Shown: one piece after another, positions 1-37,561 of the stretch | How positions within the stretch are numbered: position 1 is the first letter of the stretch | Layout: each line of letters opens with the position of its first letter | Assembly (NCBI GenBank): GCA_044348705.1 | Contig: JBIKSH010000005.1 | Span: 25,552 to 89,551, forward strand | DNA: 64,000 bases | Reading direction: 5' to 3' | Origin: Rhodoluna sp. | GTDB lineage: Bacteria > Actinomycetota > Actinomycetes > Actinomycetales > Microbacteriaceae | Position numbers and translations under genes: made by a program | The notes under the pieces: generated by a model | Seen by the model: the letters and a program-made list of their open reading frames with translations, nothing else | The model's database searches: none | Told to the model about the DNA's origin: nothing

Positions 1-3000
1 ACATAGACCCTGTGAAGGTGAAACTGACCTCTGCAGCCGATGTGGTCGCGCCCCAGGGCTGGACGGTTACATTCTCAACTGACGGAACAACTTTCTCTGC
101 CACCCCGAGCAGCTGGGCGGCTGTCGTCAAGGTGAAAGCAACCGGTCCAGTCGACTCGGCAGGAGCGACCGCAGGTGGCCGACAACTGGTTTCAACTACC
201 GCATCCGCTTCTGGCACTGTCGCCACCACGAAGGGTGCAATCCGAAGCGGCGGAGACGGCTGGGACCTTGACTTCGACAGCCGCGGCTACGTCTACAACG
301 TCTACCACCGCAACCTAGTAAATGGCGCACTCGACTGTCGAAAAGTTAGCGACGGTTCTTTCTGCAGCCCAAACTGGCCATTCAGACTAAACAACCATGG
401 CTTTAATACGAACTTTGCACCTACCCAGTTTTTTGACGAAGTGAACCAACACATCTGGATTCCGACGGCCGACCGCCTAACCGGAACCGGATTCCTCTGT
501 GTTGACGTCTCGGTCGTCGAGACGCCGGGTCTCTGCGGAGGCTCAAAAGAGACCGCATGGAAGATGGTCAAAGCTCGAGCGAACGCAAACGAACTCAGCG
601 TTTACGACATCATTGCTGCAAACGGCAAAATATACGCCTGGGATGTTCTGAGCCCCGCTTTGCTCTGCTATGACTACCTAGCAAACAACGGTCTAGGCGC
701 TTCGTGCACCGGAGTGCCGACGTTCCCGAAGCTGGTTGCGGGAAGCGTTAACGGTGTGAACAACATCCCTGCCGGCCACACCAACTTGAAACTTGCCTTT
801 GGCAATCTATACGGTCAACTCAACGGTGTGATGGTTTGTTTCAACCCAACCACCTACGCGAAGTGTGCTGGCTGGGCTGACTATGACTTCAATATTCCAT
901 CGACCACCGGTGTCTCGGCTATGTATCTTCAGCCAAACAGCGCCGGCGCAATTGCCGGTGTTTGTGTTACGAATGACGCGAAGTGCTTCGCGGCAGATGG
1001 TACCCGTTTTGCGGCAAACACCACCATCCAGGCTGCTCTAACCAACTGGAACCTTGCCAAATGGAAGGGCGCAGTCGAGGCTATCGGCAGCAGATTGCTA
1101 TTCGTAAGCATCTGGGACAAGCCTTCATACCTCTTCTGCTACGACTTTGCACTCAATGGCCCTTGCGCAAACTGGACACCTTCATCTGCCTTTGGCGTTG
1201 CGGGCGTAGGTCAAATGCTCATGCAGCCACAAGGAGATAACTCATGGCGTGTGTACACGATCAAGAGTGACCCACGCGCAAGCGACTGCCTCTGGACAAA
1301 CGGTGACGCTCCGATTGCAACAATCGGGCAAGTAACCCTTTCAACCGCAACCTTCGGATGCAACATCCAAGTGGCGAACCCAACCTATGGGCAAAGTTCG
1401 TTTCAAACGCGACTCGGATGTTCGGCTGATGCCAACCTCGCGTACAAGCGTTTCACGATCGGCGGCCTTACCAAAGGCGTTGACTACTCGAGCGCGACCC
1501 TAACCATTACCAAGGCTTCTGGTGAAGTTCTTGTATCTGGCGGTACCAAGTGGGAGAACGTGGCCTTTGATAATGCCGGCTCCGTGAACGTGGCGTCCAT
1601 TTTGATGTCTGATCTGGGTACCGGTGCATCGTTTAAGGTGAACTACGCCAACCGCACCTCCACTGCTGCAACGACAGCGAAGATGACCTTAGAAACCGAC
1701 GCAGCCCAACTGTGTACTACAGTGACGGCAAACACCATTTGCCCAACCACTACCCAAGTGGGCACCCCCGTTGGTCAGTCGACCTTGTTCACAGCAACCG
1801 GTGCACAGATTGTTTCAGGTGTTCGCACCAACTACAGCTCGACTTCTGAGACTCTAGCCATTTCGGCTCCAAGCGCCGCCGCTTGCGGTTTTGCCATGAC
1901 TGGTCAGGTCGCTGAAGGTGAATTTGCTAAGTCATATCCGACAACCATTAAACCTATTTCTGGGGTCACTGCAACCTTGACCGACTCGGCAGGAAACGTG
2001 CTCAAAGACGCTGAGGGTCAAGACATCACTGCGGTCACTGATGCCAGTGGAAATTACACCTTTGGCTACCTAAAGGCAGGCACATACAAGGTGCGCTTCG
2101 CTGACTTCCCGCTGGTCAACGGAGTGGGCGCTGGCGATGTGGCCATGGTCTACATTTCACCGTTCAAGTACCAGGGCGGCAGCTATGTAATGACTGCACA
2201 AAACCCGATGAACTTCACCACCATTCAGTCGCCTTTGACCTCACTGGCGGTTACGGGTTCGGCCGGCGGTGGCGACATGGTTGTCAAGGCCACCTACACG
2301 ATGCGTGCGGTGGCAAATGCCGACACAGTCTCGATCAAGGCAGGCGCGGCTTCGACGATCGATGTGCTCGCTAACGATTCACCGACAACTGACGATAGCT
2401 TCACAACCACCAGCCTCAAGCTCTGTGCGGTCAACACAACTAGCTCTTGCACCCTTTCAACCGTCACCGTTTCGGGCGAAGGTACCTATACGGTTTCGTC
2501 CGGAAAGATTGTCTTTACCCCGGCTGTAGGGTTCACTGGCGCAGCAAAGCCAATCACTTATCAAGTGTCTGACAGCTACTCAAACACCCCTCAGACCGTT
2601 ACTGCATTGCTGTCGGTGACTGCCGTTCCGGCTCCGACCACCGCGGCAGACACCACCTCGGGTAACACGCTTGCTCCAATCACAGTGGATGTCACAGCCA
2701 ACGACTCACCTGCAACGGGCACCACGCTCGACAAGGCTTCGGTGAAACTCTGTGCGGTTGGAACCACCACTGGGTGTGCTCAAACTTCGGTTTACGTAAC
2801 TGGCAAGGGAACCTATGCGGTCAGCAACACCGGAGTGATCACATTCACTCCAGATGCTGGTTTTGTCGGCGCTGTCGCACCGCTCACCTACTCGATCAAT
2901 GACGCGGTTGGCAACACCTCTACAAACACCGTTGGCGTCACCGTGAACCCAACGCCGCCTCAGGTCACGACAGCTACGTTTGGCCCAGCTGCGCTCGGCG

Positions 3001-6000
3001 TAGCAGCCGAGCCGTTCACTCAGGCGAGTACTGCGGGCTCAGCGAGCATCCCAGCGGTTAGCGCTTGGAGCTTGGTTGCCGGTCAAGTTCCTCCTGGCAT
3101 GGCCTTTGACGTCAACACTGGAGCCATTACGGGCACCCCAACTACGGTCGGAAACTATACGTTCACAGTTCAGGTGACAGATGCAAATGGGCTCACCGCG
3201 ACAAAGGTTGAAACCATCGTGGTTGCCGTTCCACCGACGATTACCACCACTCCCCTGACCTACAAGGTTTATGCCGGTGCACTTTCGAACATCAGCAGCA
3301 CAGCCGATAAGGGAACAGTTGACCTAAAGCCAACAGCGGCTTGGAGCGCGACCGGACTACCTGCTGGGTTGTCAATCAACCCGAACACCGGTGCCATCAC
3401 AGGCACTCCGACTGCAACCGGGTCATTCACCGTTACGCAGAAGGTTGTCGACCTGAACGGTCTTGTCGATACTCAAGATTTGACCATCAACGTAGTCGCG
3501 AAGCCGACCATCGATACAGTGCTACCCCTCGCTTCAATCGTTGCTGGAAAGACAATCACGCCGATTGAGCAGTCCAAAACTGCAGGAACCGCTTTGATTC
3601 CAGCGACCGGCGCTTGGAGTATCGAGTCTGGGGCTCTTCCCTTCGGCTTGACACTCAATGCCGACACCGGAGCTATCTCGGGAACCACCGCTCTTACCGG
3701 CACATTCACGTTTACTCTCAAGTTGACCGACGCAGCGGGAGAAGTTGCAACCAAGGTTGAAACCATAACCGTGAACTCTGGGCCAACCATCACGACCACG
3801 CCGCTTACTCGCAAGGTTTACACAGGCACTGCGGCAACCGTGGCTAACACGGTTACCATCGGAACCGGCGCAATTCTGTCAACCGGTGGCTGGAGTGCAA
3901 CTGGATTGCCGGCTGGCTTGAGCCTGAACGCAAACACTGGTGTTATCTCGGGCACACCGACTGTCGCCGGCAGCTACAACGTTGTTGAACGTGTAGTCGA
4001 TGTGAACGGCTTGGCCGACGAGGAAACAATCGTGATCAAGGTGGTCACGAAGCCTACGATCACCACTGTGACGCCTCTAACCCCTGTGGTTTCAGGAGTT
4101 ACCATCACGCCAATCGCGCAAACGAAAACCAACGGAAGCGCGGCGGTTGCAGCAACGGGAGCTTGGTCTCTTGAGTCCGGTTCGCTACCAGCTGGCCTTG
4201 CTCTGAACCCAAACACCGGTGAAATCACTGGTAAGCCAACTGCCACCGGAACCTTCACCTTCACCGTGAAGTTGGTCGATGTTGATGGCGAAATCGCGAC
4301 AAAAGAAGAAACCCTCGTGGTGAATTCTGGTCCTACCATTACGACGACGCCGCTGGCTCGAACCCTGAACAATGGCGTCGCTGCGACTATCGCAAACTCG
4401 GTCACAATTGGTACCAGCGCAGTCGCCAATAATGGATGGACCGCAACCGGATTGCCGGCGGGCTTGTCTCTGAACCCGAGCACCGGAGCGATTACAGGTA
4501 CACCCACCACAAACGGAACCTTTACAGTTGCGCTGAAGGTAACCGACCTGAACGGTTTGTTCGATGAAGAGACTCTAACCATCACCATCGAAGCCCCACC
4601 GGTGGTCACCACCACCCCGGTCTCATATAAGTTCGGTGTAAACAACCCACTTAATTTGATTTTGGATGACTTCTTTGCCACTGGAACCAAGTTCGCGGCC
4701 TCTAGAGAGATCGTCAACACAGCAAACAAGGGCACTGCCAACATCGGCACCACAGGTGCGTGGAGTGCAATCGGTCTTCCACCTGGTCTAACCATCAACC
4801 CCGATACAGGAAAGATTGGCGGCTCAGCGACCACTGTCGGTGTTTACACGCCAACCATCACCGTCACTGACCTAGCTGGCCTCAGAGGCTCTAAGGTGCT
4901 CACAATCGAGATTGTGCAAGGCCCTAAAAACACGACTCCTAAGGTGTACAACTACGAAGTGGACATTCCGAAAAAGCTTGGAACCACACCTGTAACGATT
5001 ACTCAAACCTGGACTCTAGGCTCTGCCCAATTGAACTCGAATGGGCGACCAGTGCCTCATCTAGTTCAGGGCGAGAAACCCGCCGTCGTGACATCCGTGA
5101 GCATCGTAAATGGTGAAATTCAGGTTCTTCCTTCACTGGCCATGTCACTGGGTAAGGGTGTCGGAGCATATGAGCTGAAGACCGTCATAGTCGACGCAAA
5201 CGGCGCCTTCGATATTGCAACGTTCACCATCAACATCACCAATGGCGCGACCAATGTGACGACATTGATACTTCCAGAAACGATTGTCGATGGAATGTTG
5301 ATGACAAATGACCTATTCGCGCTATCTGGAACGAGCAGTAAGAAGCTGGCCCTGAGCTACACGACTAGCACTCCTAAGGTCTGTGTAATCGACACGGCTA
5401 CCAAAAAGCTCAAACTGCTAAATGAAGGCACGTGTACCGTCACCGCTGCCAGTGGCACCGGCGCTCTGCTCTCTAAAGACACCAAGAGCTTCAAGGTCAC
5501 CAAGCTGCCACAAACCACGACCATCATCGAGCCTGGCTCGGTGATTCCGGGTGGAATTGAAAAGGCACCTTTGGCAACCGATGATCCACTCGGATTCCAG
5601 CTTTACGCGTCGGTGACCTCGGGTCTGCCGCCGGTTTACGTCTCGCTAGATCCAAACGTGTGTTCAGTGGATGCTGGCGGCGTGGTTGTCTGGGACGCGG
5701 ACTTGACTGCAGTGCCTAAGGTGGCGTCTGACTTCAAGTGCCGCATCCAAGTGTCACACCCGGGCAACGTGGGCTATAAGGCGGCGGCGCCGAAGGTAAT
5801 CACGCTTACCGCGACGCACGTCGAACCGCTTCCGCCTGACGGTGGAGTGACCAAAGAGCCAGAGCAGCTTGCTGCACTGCCTGCTAGCGGCGGAACCACC
5901 GCTGAAAAGGGCGGCAACAAGTTCGTTGTAAAGGTCGATAAGGGCAAGAAGACCGTGACCGTTCAGCCGATCTCAAAGGGTCGCTGGATTGGACCGATCT

Positions 6001-6491
6001 ACGCCGACATCACCATCACATACACGCCTAAGGGTGCAACTGTTTCAAAGACTCAGGTCTGTAAGCGAAACTACTTTGGAATCGCGGTTATCGACCCGAA
6101 GACAAAGAAGATGGTCACACCTGAACTTGGCGGTAACCCGTTGGTGATTCCTGAAAAGACTAAGTACTCAACGCAGGTAACCGCCCTAATCAAGAAGTAC
6201 CAAGCTATGAAGGGCAAGTTCAGCACTACCAAGACGGTCAAGGGCAAAAAGGTTAAGTACCCTGGCTACCTTGACTACAAGTACTTCAACGGCCAAGCCA
6301 CCTGTGTGCTCGACTCTAGCGCTTACGCAGCTTGGAAGTCCGGAGTTCAGATCACAGCCAAGGCTACGGTTACGCGTGACAGGCGTTGGCCAACAACCTA
6401 CACGCGCTACAAGTCATACGACTGGAAGAAGAAGAGCAACAACGGCATCATCTATCCAACAGTTGTCGACTGGGTAATCAAGATCGGCTAA
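1..6491 (+). CDS. Giant secreted repeat / adhesin-like surface protein, 5'-partial (at least 2159 aa in window)
   Basis: The frame is open from the window edge (first full codon at nt 3, no in-frame stop before the GTG at 12) to TAA 6489-6491. Segments readable in translation: a Cys-paired periodic N-region; a Cna-B/SdrD-B-like segment (SGVTATLTDSAGNVLKD..GNYTFGYLKAGTYKVRF); two CshA-type-fibril-like repeats; seven putative-Ig (He_PIG / dystroglycan-cadherin-like) repeats; two Big-like segments (..TSTPKVCVID..GTCTVTA..); a Lys-rich tail. No LPXTG-type signal at the C-terminus. Confidence 0.85.
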   Translation, partial: IDPVKVKLTSAADVVAPQGWTVTFSTDGTTFSATPSSWAAVVKVKATGPVDSAGATAGGRQLVSTTASASGTVATTKGAIRSGGDGWDLDFDSRGYVYNVYHRNLVNGALDCRKVSDGSFCSPNWPFRLNNHGFNTNFAPTQFFDEVNQHIWIPTADRLTGTGFLCVDVSVVETPGLCGGSKETAWKMVKARANANELSVYDIIAANGKIYAWDVLSPALLCYDYLANNGLGASCTGVPTFPKLVAGSVNGVNNIPAGHTNLKLAFGNLYGQLNGVMVCFNPTTYAKCAGWADYDFNIPSTTGVSAMYLQPNSAGAIAGVCVTNDAKCFAADGTRFAANTTIQAALTNWNLAKWKGAVEAIGSRLLFVSIWDKPSYLFCYDFALNGPCANWTPSSAFGVAGVGQMLMQPQGDNSWRVYTIKSDPRASDCLWTNGDAPIATIGQVTLSTATFGCNIQVANPTYGQSSFQTRLGCSADANLAYKRFTIGGLTKGVDYSSATLTITKASGEVLVSGGTKWENVAFDNAGSVNVASILMSDLGTGASFKVNYANRTSTAATTAKMTLETDAAQLCTTVTANTICPTTTQVGTPVGQSTLFTATGAQIVSGVRTNYSSTSETLAISAPSAAACGFAMTGQVAEGEFAKSYPTTIKPISGVTATLTDSAGNVLKDAEGQDITAVTDASGNYTFGYLKAGTYKVRFADFPLVNGVGAGDVAMVYISPFKYQGGSYVMTAQNPMNFTTIQSPLTSLAVTGSAGGGDMVVKATYTMRAVANADTVSIKAGAASTIDVLANDSPTTDDSFTTTSLKLCAVNTTSSCTLSTVTVSGEGTYTVSSGKIVFTPAVGFTGAAKPITYQVSDSYSNTPQTVTALLSVTAVPAPTTAADTTSGNTLAPITVDVTANDSPATGTTLDKASVKLCAVGTTTGCAQTSVYVTGKGTYAVSNTGVITFTPDAGFVGAVAPLTYSINDAVGNTSTNTVGVTVNPTPPQVTTATFGPAALGVAAEPFTQASTAGSASIPAVSAWSLVAGQVPPGMAFDVNTGAITGTPTTVGNYTFTVQVTDANGLTATKVETIVVAVPPTITTTPLTYKVYAGALSNISSTADKGTVDLKPTAAWSATGLPAGLSINPNTGAITGTPTATGSFTVTQKVVDLNGLVDTQDLTINVVAKPTIDTVLPLASIVAGKTITPIEQSKTAGTALIPATGAWSIESGALPFGLTLNADTGAISGTTALTGTFTFTLKLTDAAGEVATKVETITVNSGPTITTTPLTRKVYTGTAATVANTVTIGTGAILSTGGWSATGLPAGLSLNANTGVISGTPTVAGSYNVVERVVDVNGLADEETIVIKVVTKPTITTVTPLTPVVSGVTITPIAQTKTNGSAAVAATGAWSLESGSLPAGLALNPNTGEITGKPTATGTFTFTVKLVDVDGEIATKEETLVVNSGPTITTTPLARTLNNGVAATIANSVTIGTSAVANNGWTATGLPAGLSLNPSTGAITGTPTTNGTFTVALKVTDLNGLFDEETLTITIEAPPVVTTTPVSYKFGVNNPLNLILDDFFATGTKFAASREIVNTANKGTANIGTTGAWSAIGLPPGLTINPDTGKIGGSATTVGVYTPTITVTDLAGLRGSKVLTIEIVQGPKNTTPKVYNYEVDIPKKLGTTPVTITQTWTLGSAQLNSNGRPVPHLVQGEKPAVVTSVSIVNGEIQVLPSLAMSLGKGVGAYELKTVIVDANGAFDIATFTINITNGATNVTTLILPETIVDGMLMTNDLFALSGTSSKKLALSYTTSTPKVCVIDTATKKLKLLNEGTCTVTAASGTGALLSKDTKSFKVTKLPQTTTIIEPGSVIPGGIEKAPLATDDPLGFQLYASVTSGLPPVYVSLDPNVCSVDAGGVVVWDADLTAVPKVASDFKCRIQVSHPGNVGYKAAAPKVITLTATHVEPLPPDGGVTKEPEQLAALPASGGTTAEKGGNKFVVKVDKGKKTVTVQPISKGRWIGPIYADITITYTPKGATVSKTQVCKRNYFGIAVIDPKTKKMVTPELGGNPLVIPEKTKYSTQVTALIKKYQAMKGKFSTTKTVKGKKVKYPGYLDYKYFNGQATCVLDSSAYAAWKSGVQITAKATVTRDRRWPTTYTRYKSYDWKKKSNNGIIYPTVVDWVIKIG
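2311..2950 (+). repeat. Two tandem CshA-type-fibril-like coding repeats (about 105 aa each) inside the giant ORF
   Basis: Paired segments ..SIKAGAASTIDVLANDSPTTDDSFTTTSLKLCAV..VTVSGEGTYTVSSGKIVFTPAVGFTGAAKPITYQVSD.. and ..TLAPITVDVTANDSPATGTTLDKASVKLCAV..VYVTGKGTYAVSNTGVITFTPDAGFVGAVAPLTYSIND.. share the motif pattern ANDS, KLCA, GKGTY, G-I-FTP, GF-G and Y. Confidence 0.6.
2955..4919 (+). repeat. Seven tandem putative-Ig (He_PIG-like) coding repeats, about 85-105 aa each
   Basis: Repeat starts are near 2955, 3231, 3501, 3780, 4050, 4329 and 4596. Each carries W-S/T-x-x-GLP-x-GL-x-(L/I)N-x-x-TG-x-I-(T/S)GTPT-x-x-G-x-(F/Y)T. R2/R4/R6 form one subtype and R3/R5 another. The DNA copies have diverged and are not near-identical. 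Confidence 0.75.
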
Positions 6492-6507
6492 GGCCGAGTT
6501 CAAGTGG

Positions 6508-6535
6508 ATGCGGGCTGCAGAAATGTGGCCCGCAT
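6508..6535. terminator. Hairpin between the convergent adhesin and DoxX-like genes (possible bidirectional terminator)
   Basis: ATGCGGGC (6508-6515), 12-nt loop, GCCCGCAT (6528-6535): a perfect 8-bp stem. It is followed by TCGCTGTTT on the plus strand. The T-run is weak on both strands. Confidence 0.45.
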
Positions 6536-6542
6536 TCGCTGT

Positions 6543-6956
6543 TTAACGGCTCGGGCGAAAGACTTGGCGCAACCAGGCAATCGAACCTGCGCTCCACAGC
6601 GCCCAAACGACCAGCAACGGCTGAAAGAACAGGCGGATTAGTCGTGCCTCATCGGTGTTGAGACCAAATGCATCGATGCCTTGAACATACTGATTGATGT
6701 TGCCGGCAAAGATTGCCACGAAGAACGTGGCAACCACGACACCTACTTGAGGCAGATACTTGGTCGCCGAAACGAGCGCTAGACCGAGCAGAATCTCTAC
6801 TGCACCAGAGGCCAAAACAACGAAGTCAACGTCGAGCGGCAGCCACACCGGAACCTGTGCGCGAAAATCCGCTCGCCCGAAGGTGAGGTGTGAAATGCCG
6901 GCGAATATGAGAAACGCTGCGAGCAGCATCCGCGCTAATGTTTTGGCGACTCTCAT
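6543..6956 (-). CDS. DoxX-like small integral membrane protein (about 137 aa, 4 predicted TM)
   Basis: The ORF is very hydrophobic, with the pattern ..LLAAFLIFAGISHL....VP.WLP....VVLASGAVEILLGLALV.. that I associate with DoxX/DoxX-like families. ATG at 6956-6954 (TTG one codon upstream at 6959) lies 6 nt after the heliorhodopsin stop codon. Confidence 0.5.
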   Translation of the reverse strand: MRVAKTLARMLLAAFLIFAGISHLTFGRADFRAQVPVWLPLDVDFVVLASGAVEILLGLALVSATKYLPQVGVVVATFFVAIFAGNINQYVQGIDAFGLNTDEARLIRLFFQPLLVVWALWSAGSIAWLRQVFRPSR

Positions 6957-6962
6957 CAAGGA

Positions 6963-7766
6963 TTAGAGAGTCAGTGCGGGAATGATTGCGCCAGAGAAAA
7001 CCTGCCAAGCGAGGATGCTCTTAGCCACGAGTGAGAGCGTGATGTAGGTGCGCTCCCCCTTGAGGTAGTTAGCCCACGAGCCGATCTGCTTGTACTGAAG
7101 AGCCTGGTTGATAGCGAAGGTGTTGAAGAAGATGAACAGTGAAACGATGATTCCGATTACGAAACCAGGAACCTCGGCTGCGCTCTCTGAGCCTGGCTGG
7201 AACGCTTGGACGGCGATTAGAACCCAAGGCACGATTCCGGTCATCGAACCGAAGATGAAAGGTAGGCCCTTGCCGTTGCCTGGGGTTTCGTACTTCTCTT
7301 GGAGAGCACCGAACATGATCATCGAGGCGTTGACCGCGAAGATTGCGACCAGAGCCGAGAAGTCTGAAATGCCCGTGAGCTGGGCGATTAGCCAAATCAT
7401 GACTGACGAGCTGATCGAATACTCAACCCATCTGAAGTAGTTGTGGTTGCGCTCGAGCCCAGCGGCATAGCGCTTGAAGAACATTGGCGACGAGATTAGA
7501 AAGTGAAAGAATGCCGAGAGGGCCAAGAACGCGACAACGCCCAGGCCTAAGTTGACTTCCCATAGAACCACTTTCTCGGTTGGAAAGCCTGCCCCCGGAG
7601 GGCCGGTCATGTAGTCGACGGTGGCATCAAAGGTGACTTGGTTTTCGATTCGCGACAAGAAGTAACCAAATGCAACGGCCTGAAGCAGGTGCATGAACCC
7701 GGCAACGATGTTGTAAGTTCTCAACCGAGTGATTTGTTCGGCTGGAGTGCGTGTGGTTTTGGCCAT
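6963..7766 (-). CDS. Heliorhodopsin (retinal-binding 7-TM protein, 267 aa)
   Basis: Near-colinear with my recollection of the prototype heliorhodopsin 48C12. Shared blocks: FMHLLQ (His26), SAFFHF(L)ISS (His88), NYFRWVEYSISSSVMIWLIAQ (Glu115 counterion position), FAVNASMIMFG, QEKY, GIVPW, VPGFVIGIIVSLFIFFN, LQYK, SNYLKGERTYITLSLVAKSILAWQ(V)FSG (Schiff-base Lys249; AAG at 7022-7020). SD-like AAGGGGA lies 6-7 nt before ATG 7766. Confidence 0.9.
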   Translation of the reverse strand: MAKTTRTPAEQITRLRTYNIVAGFMHLLQAVAFGYFLSRIENQVTFDATVDYMTGPPGAGFPTEKVVLWEVNLGLGVVAFLALSAFFHFLISSPMFFKRYAAGLERNHNYFRWVEYSISSSVMIWLIAQLTGISDFSALVAIFAVNASMIMFGALQEKYETPGNGKGLPFIFGSMTGIVPWVLIAVQAFQPGSESAAEVPGFVIGIIVSLFIFFNTFAINQALQYKQIGSWANYLKGERTYITLSLVAKSILAWQVFSGAIIPALTL

Positions 7767-7794
7767 TGTGAATCCCCTTTTGTTGGTTGGGGTC

Positions 7795-7800
7795 AGTCTA
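7795..7800 (-). promoter_or_regulatory. Candidate -10 hexamer TAGACT, 28 nt upstream of the heliorhodopsin ATG
   Basis: The minus strand reads TAA-caaaggca-TAGACT-gaccccaaccaacaaaaggggattcaca-ATG. It fits the actinobacterial TAnnnT -10 and the hexamer that recurs in this window. No convincing -35. Confidence 0.35.
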
Positions 7801-7808
7801 TGCCTTTG

Positions 7809-8306
7809 TTACTTCTGTTTTGGCGCTTGAGCTGACGATTTACCCTCGGAGCTGGGTTTTTTAGTGGCGTAGGCGAACAAGGCCAAACCTGCAACCAGCG
7901 CACCCGCGCCTACGCCGTAGGCAACGACGTCGGCTGCGCGGTTAGAGTCGACGAATACACCAACGAAGACCACTGCGATGATTGCCACGACAACGCCGAT
8001 GAGCTTTGACTTCAAATCATCGAGGTCGTTGATCTGAAGCCAGGTTGGTACCTCGATCCGGGTGTCCACAAAGAGTTCATAAAGACCAAAGCCAATGACC
8101 AACAGAACGGTGCCGAGCAAGATGGCGTCGACTGCGGTCAGAACATCCACGATTGTGACTTTGAGGTAGCTGCCCTTGAAGATTGAGTCAAAAACGACCA
8201 TCAGAATCTCAATGGAACCTTGGACCATCAGCAGAAGGGCCCCGATCATCGAAGCAATGGCTGGCACGACGACCGCATAGCGGGTCATTCCGAGGATTTT
8301 TCTCAT
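7809..8306 (-). CDS. YqhA / UPF0114-family-like membrane protein (165 aa)
   Basis: Multi-TM ORF. Its architecture and length resemble E. coli YqhA-type proteins (N-terminal TM, ..ILLGTVLLVIGFGLYELFV.., then ..KSKLIGVVVAIIAVVF..). It has a Lys/Ser-rich C-terminal tail. Same strand as the heliorhodopsin gene, 42 nt upstream of it. Confidence 0.55.
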   Translation of the reverse strand: MRKILGMTRYAVVVPAIASMIGALLLMVQGSIEILMVVFDSIFKGSYLKVTIVDVLTAVDAILLGTVLLVIGFGLYELFVDTRIEVPTWLQINDLDDLKSKLIGVVVAIIAVVFVGVFVDSNRAADVVAYGVGAGALVAGLALFAYATKKPSSEGKSSAQAPKQK

Positions 8307-8312
8307 GTCTGC

Positions 8313-8318
8313 ACTCTA
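8313..8318 (-). promoter_or_regulatory. Candidate -10 TAGAGT placed for a leaderless yqhA-like transcript
   Basis: The minus strand reads cGG-TAGAGT-gcagac-ATG. There are exactly 6 nt between the hexamer and the start codon and no SD is possible. This matches the geometry known for leaderless mRNAs in actinobacteria. Confidence 0.4.
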
Positions 8319-8387
8319 CCGAGCAAACTGCCTTAGTGAAAGAAACCCAGTCGGCGTTTGCAAGTGATTTTGGCTCTAGAAAGCAAG

Positions 8388-8460
8388 CGCCCTCGGTAGG
8401 AATCGAACCTACGACCAAGAGATTAGAAGGCTCTTGCTCTATCCACTGAGCTACGAGGGC
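8388..8460 (-). tRNA. tRNA-Arg (anticodon TCT)
   Basis: The reverse complement folds as GCCCTCG-TA-GCTC-AGTGGATA-GAGC-A-AGAGC-CTTCTAA-TCTCT-TGGTC-GTAGG-TTCGATT-CCTAC-CGAGGGC-G. 73 nt, one 31:39 C:T mismatch, CCA not encoded. Confidence 0.9.
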
Positions 8461-8568
8461 ATTGCGCTAAATAAACCTGGGCAGGAACAGTTTAATGCTC
8501 AGAGTTGTAGAAAACCGTGCCGATGAGAGATGCATTAGCTCTTTGGCGAGATTTGCTAGATTTTGTTT

Positions 8569-9117
8569 GTGCAAATCGAAACAGAACGCTTGATTCTGAG
8601 ACCCATGAAGCAGAGCGACGCGGCTGACTTGTTTGAGTATCAATCGAATGCGGAAATCGTCAGGTACATACCCTGGCCTGAAGGCACCGAAGAAACTGTT
8701 CAGAAACATATCGACCGGACTCTAGCCGAAAGCGTTACCGCCCCAAAAGAAGAAGGCGAGTACTTGGTTCTTGTCTGGCAGCTGAAATCTACCGGGAAAG
8801 TAATAGGCCAATCCAACCTGAACATCGAATCAATAGAACATAGCTGCGCCGAAATCGGCTGGGTGACACATCAAGATTTTCATCGGCAAGGCTATGCTCG
8901 CGAAGCATCCGTGGCGGTTCTTACGTATGCATTTGAGACGTTAGGAATTCACCGAGTCAAGGCGGTCATGGATACTCGTGCTCCAGGCTCTGCAGCCGTG
9001 GCAGCGAGTTTGGGCATGCGCAGAGAAGCCGAGTTCAAAGAGGTCGAATTCTTCAAGGGTGAGTGGTGTGACATGTGGAACTACGCGATTCTCAAATCAG
9101 AGTTTGAACGTCGGTAA
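8569..9117 (+). CDS. GNAT-family N-acetyltransferase (RimJ/RimL-like)
   Basis: N-terminus ..QIETERLILRPMKQSDAADLFEY.. and ..GWVTHQDFHRQGYAREA.. are typical of RimJ/RimL-type GNATs. The track starts at TTG 8563. I prefer GTG 8569 because TAGATT (8557-8562) sits exactly 6 nt upstream, which suggests a leaderless start. Confidence 0.8.
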   Translation: MQIETERLILRPMKQSDAADLFEYQSNAEIVRYIPWPEGTEETVQKHIDRTLAESVTAPKEEGEYLVLVWQLKSTGKVIGQSNLNIESIEHSCAEIGWVTHQDFHRQGYAREASVAVLTYAFETLGIHRVKAVMDTRAPGSAAVAASLGMRREAEFKEVEFFKGEWCDMWNYAILKSEFERR

Positions 9118-17738: not shown

Positions 17739-17887
17739 CCGAAGCCCGTTTGCCTGAAGGCGACATAAGCCTGTTCCAATGTTCTCTAATAGGTATAAAC
17801 TCGTAAGTCGGCAACAAACAGCCACTTAGGCTGTGGTTTTGGGTGTCTAAGCCCACGCAATTCAAGCCTGCTAGGAGTTTTAGAGCG

Positions 17888-18934
17888 ATGGATATTGAGG
17901 ACTTCTCAACAGAAATGCGCGGTTACAAAAAAGACGAGGTTGACCGCGTCTTGGGTGAACTGCGCGCTGAGCTTGAGCACGTTCGCGAATACAACTTCAA
18001 CGCCGCCTCAGAACTCGACACCCTTCGCGCCGAAGTTGCTGCGCTAAAGAAGAAGAAAGATTCAGCTCCGGGCTACGCCGAACTCGGTGCCCAGTTTGAG
18101 CAAACACTTCGACTAGCAGAAGAACAAGCCAAGAAAATGGCCACGGATGCTGCGCAAGATGCCATCCGCGTTCGAGAAACAGCCAAGGCCGAGACCGAAC
18201 AACTCGCCCGCAAGGCTCAGCAAAAAGCTGACTCAATCATTGCCGAAGCTGAAGCAAAACTTGCCGAGGCAAAGATTCAAGCCGAAAGCCTCAGTTCTGA
18301 AATTCTTCAAAATGCCAAGTCTAAAGAGTCAGAGGCCGGCGAGAAGATCGCCACAGCCGCTCGTGAGGCCTCAGCTATCAAGTCTGAAAGCGAGCGTTAC
18401 GCCGCCGAACTTCGCGCACAGGTTCACCGTGAGACCGAAGAAGCCCGTGCCCTCGCTACCGAACTTGCTCAGCGCACCGCCCAGGCACGTGTAGAGCTTG
18501 AAGCGGAGCTAAAAACCCGTCGCGACGAGACTGAGCAAGAAGCGCTGACTCTTTACCAGAGGGCCGTAGCCCAGGCCCAAGAGACCACCGACGAAGCACA
18601 GCGCAACTTTGCTGAAGCTTCAGCTCGAGCCACCGAGATTTTGAGCGAAGCCGACAGGCTCAACCGCGAAGCAAACCAAAACGCTGCAGCGATGTCTGAT
18701 GAGGCAACTCGAACCGCAACCAACACGATCAACCAGGCCCGCCGACGCGCAGAGGCTCTAACCAAAAAGGCTGAGTCGATCGCAAATCACGCCATCAAGG
18801 AATCTGAAGATCGCCTAGTGCGCATGCGTGCCGAGCGTATCGAAATCGATGAGTTCTTGAACCAGCTGCGCAACCTAATGTCTACCGAGGCCATGGTCGC
18901 CGACGCAGAAAACGCTGCTCAGACCGACGACTAG
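17888..18934 (+). CDS. DivIVA-domain / long coiled-coil protein (about 348 aa)
   Basis: N-terminal DivIVA-like motif F..EMRGYKKDEVDRVL, followed by about 300 aa of Ala/Glu/Arg-rich heptad-like sequence. I chose ATG 17888 (AGGAG 11 nt upstream) because it matches the N-terminal length of the paralog at 32414. The track start is GTG 17843. Confidence 0.75.
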   Translation: MDIEDFSTEMRGYKKDEVDRVLGELRAELEHVREYNFNAASELDTLRAEVAALKKKKDSAPGYAELGAQFEQTLRLAEEQAKKMATDAAQDAIRVRETAKAETEQLARKAQQKADSIIAEAEAKLAEAKIQAESLSSEILQNAKSKESEAGEKIATAAREASAIKSESERYAAELRAQVHRETEEARALATELAQRTAQARVELEAELKTRRDETEQEALTLYQRAVAQAQETTDEAQRNFAEASARATEILSEADRLNREANQNAAAMSDEATRTATNTINQARRRAEALTKKAESIANHAIKESEDRLVRMRAERIEIDEFLNQLRNLMSTEAMVADAENAAQTDD

Positions 18935-29749: not shown

Positions 29750-30642
29750 TAGAGCAGTGTAGCCAGTCGTCGCCTTGCGGCGGCAAGGTCTGCGTTGGCA
29801 GGGTCGATCACCGCAAACAATTCGACGATGTGCTTTCTGATCGTCTCTCGGTCGTCGAAGCGCTGCTCAAAAGCATCGAGCAAGGCATCGAAAGCAACCT
29901 TGACGCTCGATGTTGAAACTTGGATGTCGGCCCAAGCGAGCAATTCGTCGAGACCCGTTGGCGGCTGGTCTGAAACCTTTTCGAAATCTGCGTCGGCGGT
30001 GCGCTTTAGTAACTTCACCTGTGCCAAGCCAGCCATTGCTAGGTCGTCTCTCGGGTTTTCGCGAAGCGCCTGCTCATAAACGTCAATCGCACCGTCGTAA
30101 TCTTCGGTTTCGATAAGCTCGAACGCCTTCTGATGAAGAGGGGGCAACTGAACCTCGACTTCTTCGGCCGACACCTCGGCCTGACCGGTTACCCCGTTTT
30201 CACTTGCAACCTCAAGAACGCGAGCAAAGATTTGCTCGATAACCTCAGCAGACTGCTCACCTTCGAACAATGGAACAGGCTGACCCTTAACCACGGCCAC
30301 CACCGTGGGAGCTCCCTTGATACCGAAAGCCTGACCAACCCGTTGTTCGATTTGCGCATCGATTCGAGCGAGCACGAGTCGACCATCCAAGTTCTCGACG
30401 GCAGCGCGCAGACGATCACTGATTTCCATGGCGCGAACCGAGTCGGCGTGAAACTCGAGAATCACCGGCACCGATGCCGATAGGTCGAGAACGGCCTTTA
30501 GGGTTTGTTCGGTGCAGTTTTGCACGAGAGCCGCGACAGCGATGCGCGAGGTCGACTGGGCCGATGTCGCCGCTGGGGTTGCGCTTGCGTCAGGCCCCTT
30601 CTTGAGCGAAGAGAGATCGTATGCACCGCTGAGCGAAGACAT
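29746..30642 (-). CDS. Thioredoxin-fold plus TPR-like co-chaperone-type protein (YbbN/CnoX-like), no CxxC
   Basis: A thioredoxin-like segment ..VPVILEFHADS.. lacks redox cysteines. The C-terminal region is TPR-like (..YDGAIDVYEQALRENPRDDLAMAGLAQV..). The call rests on motif pattern only. Confidence 0.55.
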   Translation of the reverse strand: MSSLSGAYDLSSLKKGPDASATPAATSAQSTSRIAVAALVQNCTEQTLKAVLDLSASVPVILEFHADSVRAMEISDRLRAAVENLDGRLVLARIDAQIEQRVGQAFGIKGAPTVVAVVKGQPVPLFEGEQSAEVIEQIFARVLEVASENGVTGQAEVSAEEVEVQLPPLHQKAFELIETEDYDGAIDVYEQALRENPRDDLAMAGLAQVKLLKRTADADFEKVSDQPPTGLDELLAWADIQVSTSSVKVAFDALLDAFEQRFDDRETIRKHIVELFAVIDPANADLAAARRRLATLLY

Positions 30643-32336
30643 TAAAGACCCTTCACAGAGAGCAGACCCTGGGTAACACCGAGAAGCGTGGTTTTCTCAT
30701 CTGCAGACAGCGGTGGCACATAGAAAATCATCATGTTGCCGTAGGTGCTTCGAACACCCTTGACCGAACCAGCTGAACCGAGCAAGATTTTCTCGTTACC
30801 AGAGACCGTTACACCAGAGCCGACCTTGATCGGCTTGATCGTGTAATCGTCTTTCATGTAAACCGCGACGAGAGCACCGCCCGAAGCGGTAGAGAGTGAA
30901 AGAACCTTCGACGAGCCAAGATAGTGCCTGAACTTGATTTTGGCCTTGGTGAGCTTTTGAACTTGAGCCTTCTCTAGAGCCGAAACGTCGGCGTAGTACT
31001 TGTCGTTCTCTAGGTCGAAGAGCTCGTAAAACTCGCTGAGAGTTCCCTTGTCGATAACATCGCCGTAGGTTGGGGGCAGCTCACGAGGAACGACCTTAAG
31101 GTAGGCAGAGTCAGATGCCACCGGAATGGCTCCGGCGTCGGCTGCTGCTACCGGCGGCAGAGCGGCTCCTGGAACCAGCGAAATTACGAAACTCACCTTG
31201 TATTGCGATCTCGGCGAGCTTTGCGACATGATCAGCATCTGCGGCAGGTTGGTGTCTTCGGCGTCAGTGACAACCATGAGCGTTCTCGGCCAGATGGTCG
31301 AAGATGCCGGGAGTGACCAGGTGACACGCTCTTCGATGATCGGCAAGGCCTCATTCTTGGTCGATTTAGACATCAAGTAGTAGTAAGTCGTGCGCATTTG
31401 CTGGGCGGCACCCTCGAAGCGAGTCAGCAACATCGACTTGTCGGTTGCACCATCGGCTTTTTTAGCCCACATGGCTACGTTCGAGACGATTTTTTGAATC
31501 TGAGATTCGATCAACACGGGTGGATCAGCGATGACATCAGAGGATGACGACGGAGTCGGATCGCTCGGTGCAGCTGCGGGCGCGCATCCGCTTAGTAGAC
31601 CAAGCACTAGTAGTCCACTCGTGGCGACCGACACCTTTCGGGCAACGCGTCTACCACGGCGTGGAATTTCAAGGTTCGACTTGCGACCGCGGGTTTTTGG
31701 GCCCTGAGGCGCTTTTGGCACACGACGTTGCGGTCGGCGGCGCTTGCGCTCTTCTGACACTGAGAAAAGGTTTATGACCAGAGCGGCAGCCAACAAGACA
31801 CCCGCAACGATGAGGTTGATGTTTGAAGGTGTTAGGTCATAGGCGATTGGCCATGAAACCGTCACCTTGCCTGGAGATGCAGACAAACCGTCGGTTGCGA
31901 TCAAGACCGCTGCGTCGTGTTCGTTGGTGACCGCAAGTTCGGCTTGTTGCTTGCCATTGGCTTCATCACGCCAAAGGTCGCTTCCGCGTGGCGATAGCGC
32001 AAGGTCCAATCCGAAGTTCGAAACCGGTTCGAGCTCTAAGCTCTCGGCGTCTTTAACCTGGATGCTGGTGAACGAAGAGTCGGCGATCCAAGCGCGGATG
32101 TCTGACTCACGTGCACTCGAAACAAAAGTTTTTTCGTCGCCGAAGACGGTGACAGTTGGGTTGCCCGGATAAGTCGAGAGAGTCTCGTGGTCAATAATCG
32201 CAAAATGGTTCTCGGCGTCGTATTCGAGGCTCAAAACATTAGCCGGAGGCGGCGCCCAAATCGTGCGCTGCGCAACGCCCACTAGGGCAAGCGACAGAGA
32301 CAAGACAAAGAGTCCTATCGCTGCAAATAGTTTCAC
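30642..32336 (-). CDS. Envelope protein of unknown function, two extracytoplasmic domains, internal Tat-like lipoprotein signal (564 aa)
   Basis: Layout: N-terminal signal/anchor (AAIGLFVLSLSLALVGVA), a domain of about 150 aa, TM (INLIVAGVLLAAALVINLF), an Arg/Lys-rich linker (ERKRRRPQRRVPKAPQGPKTRGRKSNLEIPRRGRRVARK), a hydrophobic stretch ending in lipobox LLSGC, then a domain of about 300 aa. I recognise no family. Confidence 0.7.
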   Translation of the reverse strand: MKLFAAIGLFVLSLSLALVGVAQRTIWAPPPANVLSLEYDAENHFAIIDHETLSTYPGNPTVTVFGDEKTFVSSARESDIRAWIADSSFTSIQVKDAESLELEPVSNFGLDLALSPRGSDLWRDEANGKQQAELAVTNEHDAAVLIATDGLSASPGKVTVSWPIAYDLTPSNINLIVAGVLLAAALVINLFSVSEERKRRRPQRRVPKAPQGPKTRGRKSNLEIPRRGRRVARKVSVATSGLLVLGLLSGCAPAAAPSDPTPSSSSDVIADPPVLIESQIQKIVSNVAMWAKKADGATDKSMLLTRFEGAAQQMRTTYYYLMSKSTKNEALPIIEERVTWSLPASSTIWPRTLMVVTDAEDTNLPQMLIMSQSSPRSQYKVSFVISLVPGAALPPVAAADAGAIPVASDSAYLKVVPRELPPTYGDVIDKGTLSEFYELFDLENDKYYADVSALEKAQVQKLTKAKIKFRHYLGSSKVLSLSTASGGALVAVYMKDDYTIKPIKVGSGVTVSGNEKILLGSAGSVKGVRSTYGNMMIFYVPPLSADEKTTLLGVTQGLLSVKGL

Positions 32337-32413: not shown

Positions 32414-33508
32414 TTGGCAGCTGAAGAAGCCGAATTTGCAACCGTGATGCGCGGCTACGACCGCGACGCGGTTGACGATGCGCTGCGTGACCTGCGACGC
32501 CAGTTGCTTCAGCTTTCTAACCAAAATGCTCAGCTTGCCACCGAACTTCGAACGGCTAATGAATCGTCGTCGCGTTTTGAACGCGAACTCAAAGAAACCG
32601 TTGCGCCAACCTACGCAACCGTCGGCGCCAGAGCTGCACTCATTTTGAGCACTGCCGAAGACCAGGCGAACCGAATTGTTGCCGAGGCAGAGACCGAACG
32701 CCGAAGGCTGCTCGAAGAGGTCGACAGCGAACTCGAAACGCTTCGTGCCGAAGCCCGCGAGTATTACGACTCGGTCGTTGCAGAGGCAAGCAGACGTGCT
32801 GAACGCCTCTCGGCCGCAGCCAAGGCAGACTACGATGCTCTGGTCGAACAGGCTAGAACCGAGTCGACGCGCCTGGTTGAAAACGCCATGCAAGAAGCCG
32901 GTGCCACTCGTGGAGCGATTGCCACAGAGGTGGCCAGGATGCGCGCCTCCGCGAAACGAGAAATCGAGGCAGCTCGAACCGCGTTTGACCGTGAACAGAG
33001 CGAGAAAAAGCTAATCGCTTCTAGAGCGCTCAACAAAAATTTGAACACCGAAAGCGCCTGGAGCTTGCTTTCAGAGCAGGCACGAGTTGACCTCGAGCTT
33101 GAAGTGACCGCGCGTCGAGCAGAGGCTGAGGCCGAGTACCTTCGCAAGCACCAAGACGCGGTTGCCGCAACTCAGCGTTACCTCGACGAAGCCAACGCGA
33201 TGCTCGCGCAGGCGAGAACCCGAGCCAACGCGGCGAAACTTGAATCAGAGACCCTTGAGACTGCAGCCAGGGCTCACACCAAGCGCACCACCAACGAGGC
33301 TCGTGAGAAGGCCGAGGCCATTCTTCTGGCCGCTGAAGCCGAAGCGCGCAGCATCCTCTCTGAAGCACAGTCGCACTCTGCAAAAGAGCTTCACAAGCTC
33401 AAGGGCAAGATTGCGAAGCTAAACGTTGAGCGTGACGCAGTGGCGCAATACCTTCACAACCTGCGCGCCGTAGTTGAAAACGCAGAGCAGAATTTAAGCA
33501 GAGACTAA
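32414..33508 (+). CDS. DivIVA-domain / long coiled-coil protein (364 aa), paralog-like to 17888..18934
   Basis: TTG start with AGGAG 8 nt upstream. N-terminus F..VMRGYDRDAVDDAL, then about 300 aa of Ala/Glu/Arg-rich coiled-coil-like sequence. Confidence 0.75.
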   Translation: MAAEEAEFATVMRGYDRDAVDDALRDLRRQLLQLSNQNAQLATELRTANESSSRFERELKETVAPTYATVGARAALILSTAEDQANRIVAEAETERRRLLEEVDSELETLRAEAREYYDSVVAEASRRAERLSAAAKADYDALVEQARTESTRLVENAMQEAGATRGAIATEVARMRASAKREIEAARTAFDREQSEKKLIASRALNKNLNTESAWSLLSEQARVDLELEVTARRAEAEAEYLRKHQDAVAATQRYLDEANAMLAQARTRANAAKLESETLETAARAHTKRTTNEAREKAEAILLAAEAEARSILSEAQSHSAKELHKLKGKIAKLNVERDAVAQYLHNLRAVVENAEQNLSRD

Positions 33509-36345: not shown

Positions 36346-37086
36346 CTATTTAGTGGGTAAAGAAGTGGTCGGGCACTTAGACAGAACCGAGCTCATCGCA
36401 GACTTCTCTGCAGACGTCACCCAAACGCCGTATTTCAGCTTCACAGCGACCTGACGGGCCACGTAAGCGCACCGATAAGACTTGTTAGGAGGCAACCAGG
36501 TTGCCGTGTCGCTGTCGCCCTTTGAGCCATTGGTTGGGCCATCAACTGCTAGTAGGTTCAACGGGTCGTTGTAGAAGTTGTAGCGCTTCGCGTAACTCCA
36601 CTTTTGAGCACCCTTTTGCCAGGCATCGCTAACCGCTACAACATGGTCAATCTGAACCTTGATCGAAGTTGAACGTCCGCGAAGAAAATTGATGGTTTTG
36701 CCGGTGTAAGGGTCGTTCAGAATGCCCGATTCGACAATGCAGGTCTCGCCCGCTCGCCAAGAAATTCTTTTCAAATCGCGAGCTAAAACGTAGTTTCTAG
36801 CATCGCAAGAGCCGACCTTGCCCCATCCGTCAGAGAACAGCTCTCGGTCGTAGCCGGTTTTTGGTGCGCGGCCCTTGACGACAAGCTTGGCAACGGCCTT
36901 AGCCGCATTTGTGGCGGTGACAACTACGGGTGCTTGTTCAACCTGGATTGTCGCGACGGCGTTAGTGGCGCCCGTTGCGGTGAAGCCCACCAACAACGAA
37001 AGTACAACTAGGGCTCTAGAGGACTTTTTCAATTTGGATGAGCTCGACGACTTTATCGATGAATAGATCGACCTGGCTTTCAACAT
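36346..37086 (-). CDS. Secreted HNH/DUF1524-type nuclease-like protein (about 246 aa)
   Basis: Signal-like N-terminus (MLKARSIYSS..SSRALVVLSLLVGFTATGATNAVA). C-terminal ..IDHVVAVSDAW....N..NLLAVDGPTNGSKGD....WLPPN.. matches the GmrSD-C/DUF1524 His-Me finger pattern. ATG 37086 has AAGGGG 6 nt upstream. The track start at 37164 is probably too long. Confidence 0.65.
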   Translation of the reverse strand: MLKARSIYSSIKSSSSSKLKKSSRALVVLSLLVGFTATGATNAVATIQVEQAPVVVTATNAAKAVAKLVVKGRAPKTGYDRELFSDGWGKVGSCDARNYVLARDLKRISWRAGETCIVESGILNDPYTGKTINFLRGRSTSIKVQIDHVVAVSDAWQKGAQKWSYAKRYNFYNDPLNLLAVDGPTNGSKGDSDTATWLPPNKSYRCAYVARQVAVKLKYGVWVTSAEKSAMSSVLSKCPTTSLPTK

Positions 37087-37561
37087 AACCGCCCCTTTTT
37101 GGTGTGAATAACACTTTTCTAACGGCATCAACCGACATTTTGTCGCCACCATCGAGGTGAGCATTTACCTGGCCGATGAAAACGTCTACCTCTTTGCGGC
37201 TGTATCCGCGAAAAATGTAACCAGTTGTTGAAAAACGTTTTCGCGCTGGGCGTTCAACGCGTCCGACCAAGAGAACCTTGAGGTCGTTCAACCTGTCGAG
37301 CAGGTCATCGAGTTGCCCCGCGTCGAGAACCCGCTGCAGCCTGCGCGCGGCGAAGGTGTCTTCGAGTTTGTCCAGCGCAGCATCCACCGCGCTAACCGAA
37401 TAGCCACCCTTTTCTAGCCTGAACTCTTTTTCGCGAATGTCGGGAATCGCGTCGATCTGGTTTGAGTTGAAAACCGCTCGAGACTCGGCGATGAATTCGT
37501 CAACGTCTGATGGCTTGTAACCGAGCTTGTTCGGCTTAGCGTGTGGAAAAGGAAACGACAT
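37016..37561 (-). CDS. DivIVA-domain protein (181 aa) with several GY-x4-VD-x-F/A-like motifs
   Basis: LGYKPSDVDEFI, GGYSVSAVDAAL, RGYSRKEVDVFI, RGGYVESQVDLFI. It lies immediately downstream of cdsA. Confidence 0.75.
   Translation of the reverse strand: MSFPFPHAKPNKLGYKPSDVDEFIAESRAVFNSNQIDAIPDIREKEFRLEKGGYSVSAVDAALDKLEDTFAARRLQRVLDAGQLDDLLDRLNDLKVLLVGRVERPARKRFSTTGYIFRGYSRKEVDVFIGQVNAHLDGGDKMSVDAVRKVLFTPKRGGYVESQVDLFIDKVVELIQIEKVL

Follow-up and report, generated by a model that had tools for sequence, protein, structure and literature searches.

The prototype of the heliorhodopsins (HeRs) is 48C12 (PDB entries 6SU3, 6SU4, 6UH3 and 9LJJ), which comes from a freshwater actinobacterium, and three types of HeR partner have been shown experimentally, namely glutamine synthetase (PMC9529153), photolyase (PMC9769723) and an ABC transporter (PMC11109279). 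For AbHeR of Actinobacteria bacterium IMCC26103, the proposed mode of action is that light governs its binding to a partner from its own operon; the protein binds glutamine synthetase and regulates it (PMC9529153). TfHeR assists a photolyase (PMC9769723), and the OmrDE ABC transporter is modulated by OcHeR, a case which shows that the partner of an HeR can be a membrane protein (PMC11109279). Ten groups of HeR neighbours have been described (glutamine synthetase, NAD+ synthetase and photolyase as well as MerR, TerC, ABC transporter, SDR, alpha/beta hydrolase, DUF2177 and DUF2238; PMC11109279), and Bulzu et al. 2021 (PMC8612252) listed glutaredoxin, glutathione peroxidase (GSHPx), glyoxalase, catalase and COG4270, the last described only as a predicted membrane protein of ~121 aa, and proposed that HeRs are tied to oxidative-stress mitigation. 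Here we analyse an HeR gene at positions 6963-7766 of a 64,000-nt stretch of a Rhodoluna sp. contig (JBIKSH010000005.1), hereafter the window. The best explanation of the data, and one that we consider very probable, is a functional HeR gene carried chromosomally by a freshwater Microbacteriaceae bacterium of the Luna-1 type (Rhodoluna-like), and it is practically certain that the open reading frame (ORF) encodes a heliorhodopsin.

The ORF runs from an ATG start through 267 codons to a TAA stop and spans 6963-7766 exactly on the minus strand, the plus-strand frame of the same interval being stop-rich. A preliminary description, which gave no strand, had named this 267-aa ORF together with four signature residues and their motifs, and the translation confirmed all of them in place. 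The features of the gene are as follows.

6963..7766, minus strand: HeR coding sequence, 267 aa plus TAA stop (ORF and translation, profile searches, 48C12 alignment, structural model, dN/dS)
7773..7779, minus strand: Shine-Dalgarno-like AAGGGGA, 6 nt 5' of the HeR ATG (read from the sequence; putative function)
7689-7691, minus strand: His26 codon (FMHLLQ)
7503-7505, minus strand: His88 codon (FFHF)
7422-7424, minus strand: Glu115 codon, counterion (FRWVEYS)
7020-7022, minus strand: Lys249 codon, retinal Schiff base (LSLVAKS)

In searches with profile hidden Markov models, the protein matched the Pfam family PF18761 (Heliorhodopsin) with 311.2 bits (E = 5.7e-93, profile positions 1-241 of 242, cut-off 26.7 bits) and the NCBIfam equivalog NF038020, 'heliorhodopsin HeR', with 331.6 bits (E = 2.8e-99, profile positions 1-244 of 244, cut-off 100). 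A type-1 rhodopsin identity was considered and rejected, since Bac_rhodopsin (PF01036) scored 12.3 bits, below its cut-off of 24.6. The best sequence relative in the PDB is 48C12 (E = 1e-86, HeR residues 9-265 on 6-257) and the second-best relative of solved structure is a Thermoplasmatales HeR. Global alignment with 48C12 gave 58% identity over colinear sequences and aligned H26, H88, E115 and K249 of the window protein with H23, H80, E107 and K241, so that the colinearity with the prototype, the assignment to heliorhodopsins and not to type-1 rhodopsins, and the functional positions of Lys249 and Glu115, as proposed in the preliminary description, all held when these checks were run.

Of the 31 positions of 48C12 that were mapped, 27 are identical in the window protein. 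They include H23, S76, H80, N101, E107, N138, M141, E149, L202, F206, N207, Q213, E230, I234, S237, A240 and K241, and the two proteins thus share the Schiff-base Lys, the counterion Glu, the two His, the Schiff-base Ser residues, E149, Q213 and E230. Differences from 48C12 are Ile91 for V83 and Gln187 for the dimer-interface Tyr179, as well as Thr176 for A168 and Leu183 for G175 at positions placed by an unverified offset; in addition, 4 residues are inserted where helix A ends and 1 residue is inserted within the AB loop. Across an alignment of 37 homologues Lys249, Glu115, His26 and His88 are invariant, and nothing in the evidence gathered speaks against the family assignment.

An AlphaFold2 model of the protein was built from these 37 homologues, all of them at least 70% identical, and showed seven helices, A to G, together with an AB-loop beta-hairpin (strands at 45-52 and 64-72). 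Confidence in this model is no more than moderate (mean pLDDT 79, pTM 0.79) because the alignment behind it is shallow and not diverse. In a Foldseek comparison the ten best PDB matches were all heliorhodopsins, at TM-scores of 0.75-0.85, with 0.78-0.85 to the 48C12 structures (6su3: 0.81-0.84) and 0.75-0.82 to TaHeR, as against ~0.5-0.6 at 9-16% identity for type-1 rhodopsin structures. When the loop charges were counted with the helix boundaries of the model, there were 10 Lys and Arg residues on the side of the N-terminus and the BC, DE and FG loops and 1 on the side of the AB, CD and EF loops and the C-terminus, and by the positive-inside rule the N-terminus is therefore placed in the cytoplasm. 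The charge count predicts the inverted, N-terminus-in topology that defines heliorhodopsins and that the preliminary description had expected, and the modelled fold matches that of solved HeRs. A plain Kyte-Doolittle prediction of transmembrane helices was discarded, as it missed the polar helix C and made the charge count meaningless.

The Gln187 codon lies at 7206-7208. In 48C12, Tyr179 forms an extracellular dimer hydrogen bond with Asp127'; the window protein has Gln187 in place of the tyrosine and retains the aspartate as Asp135, and because of this replacement its dimer interface may differ.

The window HeR belongs to the same family as TfHeR and OcHeR and falls under the same concept of a regulatory rhodopsin, and with AbHeR it shares an actinobacterial origin; it differs from all three in what lies beside it. 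On the HeR strand, the gene order is tRNA-Arg(TCT), a UPF0114/YqhA-like gene, HeR and a DoxX-like gene, with gaps of 42 nt before HeR and 6 nt after it.

8387..8460, minus strand: tRNA-Arg(TCT) (ARAGORN; Rfam, 68 bits)
7809..8306, minus strand: gene for a UPF0114/YqhA-like membrane protein of 165 aa, upstream of HeR by 42 nt (PF03350, 88.5 bits)
6543..6956, minus strand: DoxX/MauE-clan-like gene for a protein of four transmembrane helices, 137 aa, 6 nt past the HeR stop (MauE and DoxX matches sub-threshold)
6957..8386, minus strand: strain-variable slot, from the tRNA-Arg to the DoxX-like start codon (blastn of loci)

The DoxX-like gene starts with the ATG at 6956, with TTG at 6959 as an alternative. 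Unlike AbHeR, the window HeR is flanked by UPF0114 and DoxX-like genes and has no glutamine synthetase or NAD synthetase gene near it. UPF0114 and DoxX-like are not among the ten published groups (PMC11109279), unlike the alpha/beta hydrolase found in the window and the SDR found in sister strains. None of the ten groups directly adjoins the window HeR, and only the alpha/beta hydrolase gene occurs, 1.4 kb upstream, beyond the tRNA and an oppositely oriented GNAT gene. A Pfam scan of 58 ORFs that tile the window with a largest gap of ~270 nt, the giant ORF at 12-6491 being covered by NCBIfam only, found no gene for glutamine synthetase (glnA), NAD synthetase, photolyase, an ABC multidrug transporter, MerR or TerC. 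The same scan found no crt, blh or other carotenoid- or retinal-synthesis family in the 64 kb, as the preliminary description had stated for crt and blh, and no Bac_rhodopsin match among the ORFs other than the sub-threshold one on HeR itself; this lack of crt, blh and type-1 rhodopsin genes is expected. Actinorhodopsin, the type-1 proton pump of Luna-1 bacteria (e.g. RlActR, PDB 9HFK), is likewise a retinal-binding protein with seven transmembrane helices, but RlActR has 12% identity and a TM-score of ~0.56 to our HeR model and the opposite predicted topology, and no actinorhodopsin-type gene is present in the window.

Comparison with sister strains showed that the slot at 6957-8386, which in the window holds only UPF0114 and HeR, is variable. 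Its borders were set by blastn of the HeR-less loci L097 and L099 against the HeR-bearing L098 and the window: DNA homology between HeR-bearing and HeR-less loci is lost exactly at the 3' end of the tRNA-Arg and is found again from the start codon of the DoxX-like gene. In the HeR-bearing sister strains the 42-nt and 6-nt spacings in UPF0114, HeR, DoxX-like are constant, and 3' of the DoxX-like gene there follows either the giant adhesin gene or DUF4190, an SDR gene on the opposite strand, GSHPx and an ABC permease. The sister loci L096, L097 and L099 lack both UPF0114 and HeR and retain DoxX-like-DUF4190-SDR-GSHPx, and the slot of the HeR-less strains is filled by a YjdM gene or a 128-aa membrane ORF. 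The slot also takes up extra acetyltransferase genes, in L082 and L084 (in one case between UPF0114 and HeR), and elsewhere it holds unrelated genes. In most sister strains the UPF0114 gene is present or absent together with HeR. From the pattern of presence and absence among strains and the mapped slot borders, HeR (usually with UPF0114) is cargo of the flexible genome, carried at a tRNA-Arg hotspot, with the DoxX-like block as the resident at the slot border. Duplicated 3' fragments of the tRNA-Arg were found in L001 (51 nt) and L087 (38 nt), att-like scars of the kind that integrative elements are expected to leave.

Two signs of recent arrival were considered and rejected. The base composition gives no sign of a recent foreign origin of HeR and does not mark a horizontally acquired island, the G+C content being 53-55% at HeR, 56% in the whole window and 48-60% in the profiled flanks. 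The synonymous divergence (dS) of the UPF0114 and HeR cassette is lower than that of the DoxX-like gene, which is ~1.3-2.4 times that of HeR, but this does not point to a recent transfer: the flanking alpha/beta hydrolase and RND genes have 85.6% nucleotide identity to L001 and the cassette 87-88%, and since the flanking genes are about as similar as the cassette, the outlier of the locus is simply the DoxX-like gene, which evolves fast. Between strains whose DoxX-like proteins are 80-87% identical (the window against L001, L087, L090 and L093), the HeR protein is 98-99% identical.

Against the sister strains, the ratio of non-synonymous to synonymous divergence (dN/dS) was 0.015-0.05 for HeR at dS of 0.4-0.8, which indicates strong purifying selection on HeR, 0.03-0.04 for the UPF0114 gene and 0.07-0.17 for the DoxX-like gene. 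The identical HeR protein was found on 13 public metagenome contigs, the longest of 91 kb, and more than 5,500 homologues were recovered at E <= 1e-20, the named ones from Rhodoluna, Leucobacter, Cryobacterium and other Microbacteriaceae, several of which carry the label 'heliorhodopsin HeR'. The nearest species-level genomes are a Micrococcales metagenome-assembled genome (98%) and a Rhodoluna one (95%), followed by Aquiluna, Aurantimicrobium and Pontimonas at 68-82%. A 2025 survey of the Luna-1 subcluster found HeR in 60% and blh in only 4% of Rhodoluna genomes and concluded that Luna-1 bacteria rely on retinal from outside (PMC12422013). The gene is not novel: it belongs to an abundant clade whose members the NCBI pipeline names automatically, in a group that has already been surveyed.

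We lean towards the view, by analogy with described heliorhodopsins, that the protein works as a light sensor that transports nothing. All-trans retinal would be bound at Lys249, and since blh is missing from most Rhodoluna, its source is probably external to the cell. Absorption of green light, near 550 nm, is expected because almost all of the pocket residues that were mapped are the same as in 48C12. Light would isomerise the retinal, and the Schiff-base proton would pass to the group formed by Glu115, His26 and His88 and be neither released nor transported, giving a signalling state that may last about a second. This long-lived intermediate could then modulate a partner protein through the positively charged cytoplasmic loops. 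The photochemical steps follow HeR biochemistry as Pushkarev et al. are said to have described it in 2018. Those of sensing and partner regulation follow the published partner studies (PMC9529153, PMC9769723, PMC11109279). As a best guess, the physiological output would be the light-dependent tuning of a membrane thiol- or peroxide-stress function that involves the DoxX-like protein.

DoxX belongs to a mycobacterial membrane thiol-oxidoreductase complex, which fits the oxidative-stress idea. The matches of the 137-aa window protein are all sub-threshold and fall on the same N-terminal region (MauE 17.8 bits, cut-off 27; DoxX 17.9, cut-off 23.6; DoxX_2 12.9, cut-off 26.3), and we call it DoxX-like because the family member P0266 passes the DoxX cut-off with 32 bits (its MauE score, 27 bits, equals the printed cut-off). 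The family comprises 920 representative clusters, and among its close members are a DoxX-like protein fused to a GSHPx domain (P0246, 122 bits) and another fused to a Blc-type lipocalin (P0289). No Pfam domain was found in the N-terminal extensions of proteins of this family, where a glutaredoxin-fused COG4270 was sought; the GSHPx and lipocalin fusions were found instead.

The adjacency of HeR and the DoxX-like gene was followed across 80 species-level HeR loci and the sister strains, and looking back from DoxX-like homologues to their loci told the most. It recurs in three contexts that have no other gene in common: the tRNA-Arg slot, a fumarase-HeR-DoxX-like arrangement in the MWH-Ta3/Aurantimicrobium-like group, and, in Pontimonas, a divergent pair of DoxX-like gene and HeR next to DUF1684-DUF3145-fabF-acpP, the latter two being tRNA-free (loci with the adjacency include L037, L041, L044, L046, L057 and L058). 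In relatives, GSHPx lies ~1.4-2.2 kb from HeR in two different arrangements, and a gene for the catalase-peroxidase KatG lies at most four genes from HeR in five Microbacteriaceae loci (L020, L056 and three others), in three of them directly upstream and on the same strand. The GSHPx near HeR in relatives, the DoxX-like-GSHPx fusion and the KatG of other Microbacteriaceae are what likens these loci to the redox neighbourhoods of Bulzu et al., and the 6-nt junction of HeR and the DoxX-like gene falls within their strict definition of co-transcription, same strand and less than 10 bp (PMC8612252).

Several observations weigh against the DoxX-like protein as the partner. The gene keeps its place and its downstream block in the HeR-less L096, L097 and L099, and hence does not depend on HeR; it lies within 6 kb of HeR in only 11 of the 80 loci, in which genes for alpha-glucosidase (21 loci) and an MMPL transporter (20 loci) are the commonest HeR neighbours, followed by PGPGW, DUF1684, DUF3145, DoxX-like, DUF4870, fumarase and KatG; and the window itself contains no GSHPx, SDR or DUF4190. 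Co-transcription of the two genes is something that we infer from their spacing, and a promoter and terminator scan of 6300-8700 gave nothing over the shuffled expectation. An Rfam search found two tRNAs only and no riboswitch or leader, and there were no meaningful repeats around the HeR locus. In the searchable literature we found no paper that names heliorhodopsin together with DoxX, YqhA, UPF0114 or MauE, and none of DoxX, YqhA and UPF0114 is named in the supplement text of PMC11109279. Taken together, we regard it as rather doubtful that the DoxX-like protein is the partner of HeR. It is more doubtful still that HeR and the DoxX-like protein, possibly with the UPF0114/YqhA-like protein, form an undescribed light-regulated membrane module that tunes thiol and peroxide defence (GSHPx, KatG) before photo-oxidative stress, with the DoxX-like protein as a partner of a new class.

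Alternatively, the target of HeR could be a soluble enzyme whose gene lies elsewhere in the genome, such as the glutamine synthetase of the AbHeR case or the photolyase of the TfHeR case, the neighbours being irrelevant passengers of the slot. In published work, cytoplasmic loops bind partners that are enzymes of the cytoplasm (PMC9529153, PMC9769723), and the loops of the window protein are comparably rich in Lys and Arg. In the 80 loci there is no universal HeR neighbour, the gene order of the window is kept only in the nearest relatives and neighbourhoods turn over fast, and HeR is slot cargo beside a tRNA gene, all of which a distant partner would accommodate. In the published cases, however, the partner gene adjoined HeR, the 64 kb hold no gene for any of the known enzymes (glnA, NAD synthetase, photolyase), and the HeR/DoxX-like adjacency recurs in three unrelated contexts, so we hold a distant enzyme to be possible and on balance unlikely.

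A role mainly in light harvesting, in which HeR binds carotenoids and the inverted topology captures exogenous xanthophyll antennae through a lateral fenestration, has been proposed in a preprint that reports fenestrations in 91% of HeRs (10.1101/2025.11.27.691015). The helix-F site of that proposal is kept in the window protein, where F214, N215 and A218 correspond, by anchored offsets, to F206, N207 and A210 of 48C12 and to F254, N255 and P258 of Cv06. The helix-E site residues, by comparison, could be mapped by offset only and are not reliable, the proposal is based on docking, and it states no use for the energy harvested by a protein that transports nothing; we therefore consider antenna binding an improbable main function.

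A decaying HeR remnant without function, in an organism unable to make retinal, would be in line with the lack of a retinal-synthesis gene in the window, with blh in so few Rhodoluna genomes (4%; PMC12422013) and with the absence of HeR from some sister strains, but it is very hard to reconcile with an intact ORF behind a good ribosome-binding site, a dN/dS as low as 0.015-0.05 despite dS of 0.4-0.8, an identical protein on 13 independent contigs and the use of exogenous retinal documented for the group (PMC12422013). That a type-1 rhodopsin or another protein of seven transmembrane helices has been mistaken for a heliorhodopsin is next to inconceivable, as the weak Bac_rhodopsin match and the distant likeness of fold (TM-score ~0.5-0.6) are those of all heliorhodopsins, whereas the heliorhodopsin profiles score far over their cut-offs, the top structural matches are all heliorhodopsins and the charges are distributed in the opposite way to those of type-1 rhodopsins.

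A functional HeR therefore remains our reading of the gene, and it lies in otherwise ordinary surroundings. The giant CshA-repeat adhesin gene converges from the left toward the DoxX-like and HeR genes, and the remainder of the window consists of the ordinary core chromosome of an actinobacterium, with gatCAB, ligA, mnmA, glgE/glgB, rpsB-tsf-pyrH-frr, ffh, ftsY, smc, recG and others. The further features recorded are listed below.

12-6491, plus strand: giant surface-protein gene, at least 2159 aa, CshA-type fibril and tandem-95 repeats
8563-9117, plus strand: RimJ/RimL-type GNAT acetyltransferase gene, between the alpha/beta hydrolase gene and the tRNA-Arg
17843-18934 (plus), 32414-33508 (plus) and 37016-37561 (minus strand): three separate ORFs with DivIVA-domain matches in one 20-kb stretch
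30642-32336, minus strand: 564-aa ORF with no Pfam family even at E <= 10, adjoining a gene for a thioredoxin-TPR protein

The adhesin frame is open at the left edge of the window, and the gene may begin outside it. The GNAT gene is found in L081, L083, L085 and L086 and not in L001-L003 or L093, and the local G+C content at this gene, 48-51%, is slightly under the window mean.

The HeR gene itself is ordinary and typical of its group, and only its neighbourhood adds a small lead. The expectation of the preliminary description that new genomic contexts are informative was thus borne out in part, by the tRNA-Arg slot and the DoxX-like neighbour. At the tRNA-Arg hotspot HeR comes and goes, usually with UPF0114, but in the strains that carry it purifying selection is very strong; an accessory gene of this kind accords with a sensor that is useful under certain conditions and not with a core function. 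The repeated adjacency of the DoxX-like gene, together with peroxide-detoxifying enzymes nearby in relatives, offers a testable candidate partner and supports the photo-oxidative-stress hypothesis of Bulzu et al., for which it is a weak lead. The slot and its DoxX-like context could help to explain what heliorhodopsins do. If the light-regulated module were real, the DoxX-like protein would be a new class of heliorhodopsin partner.

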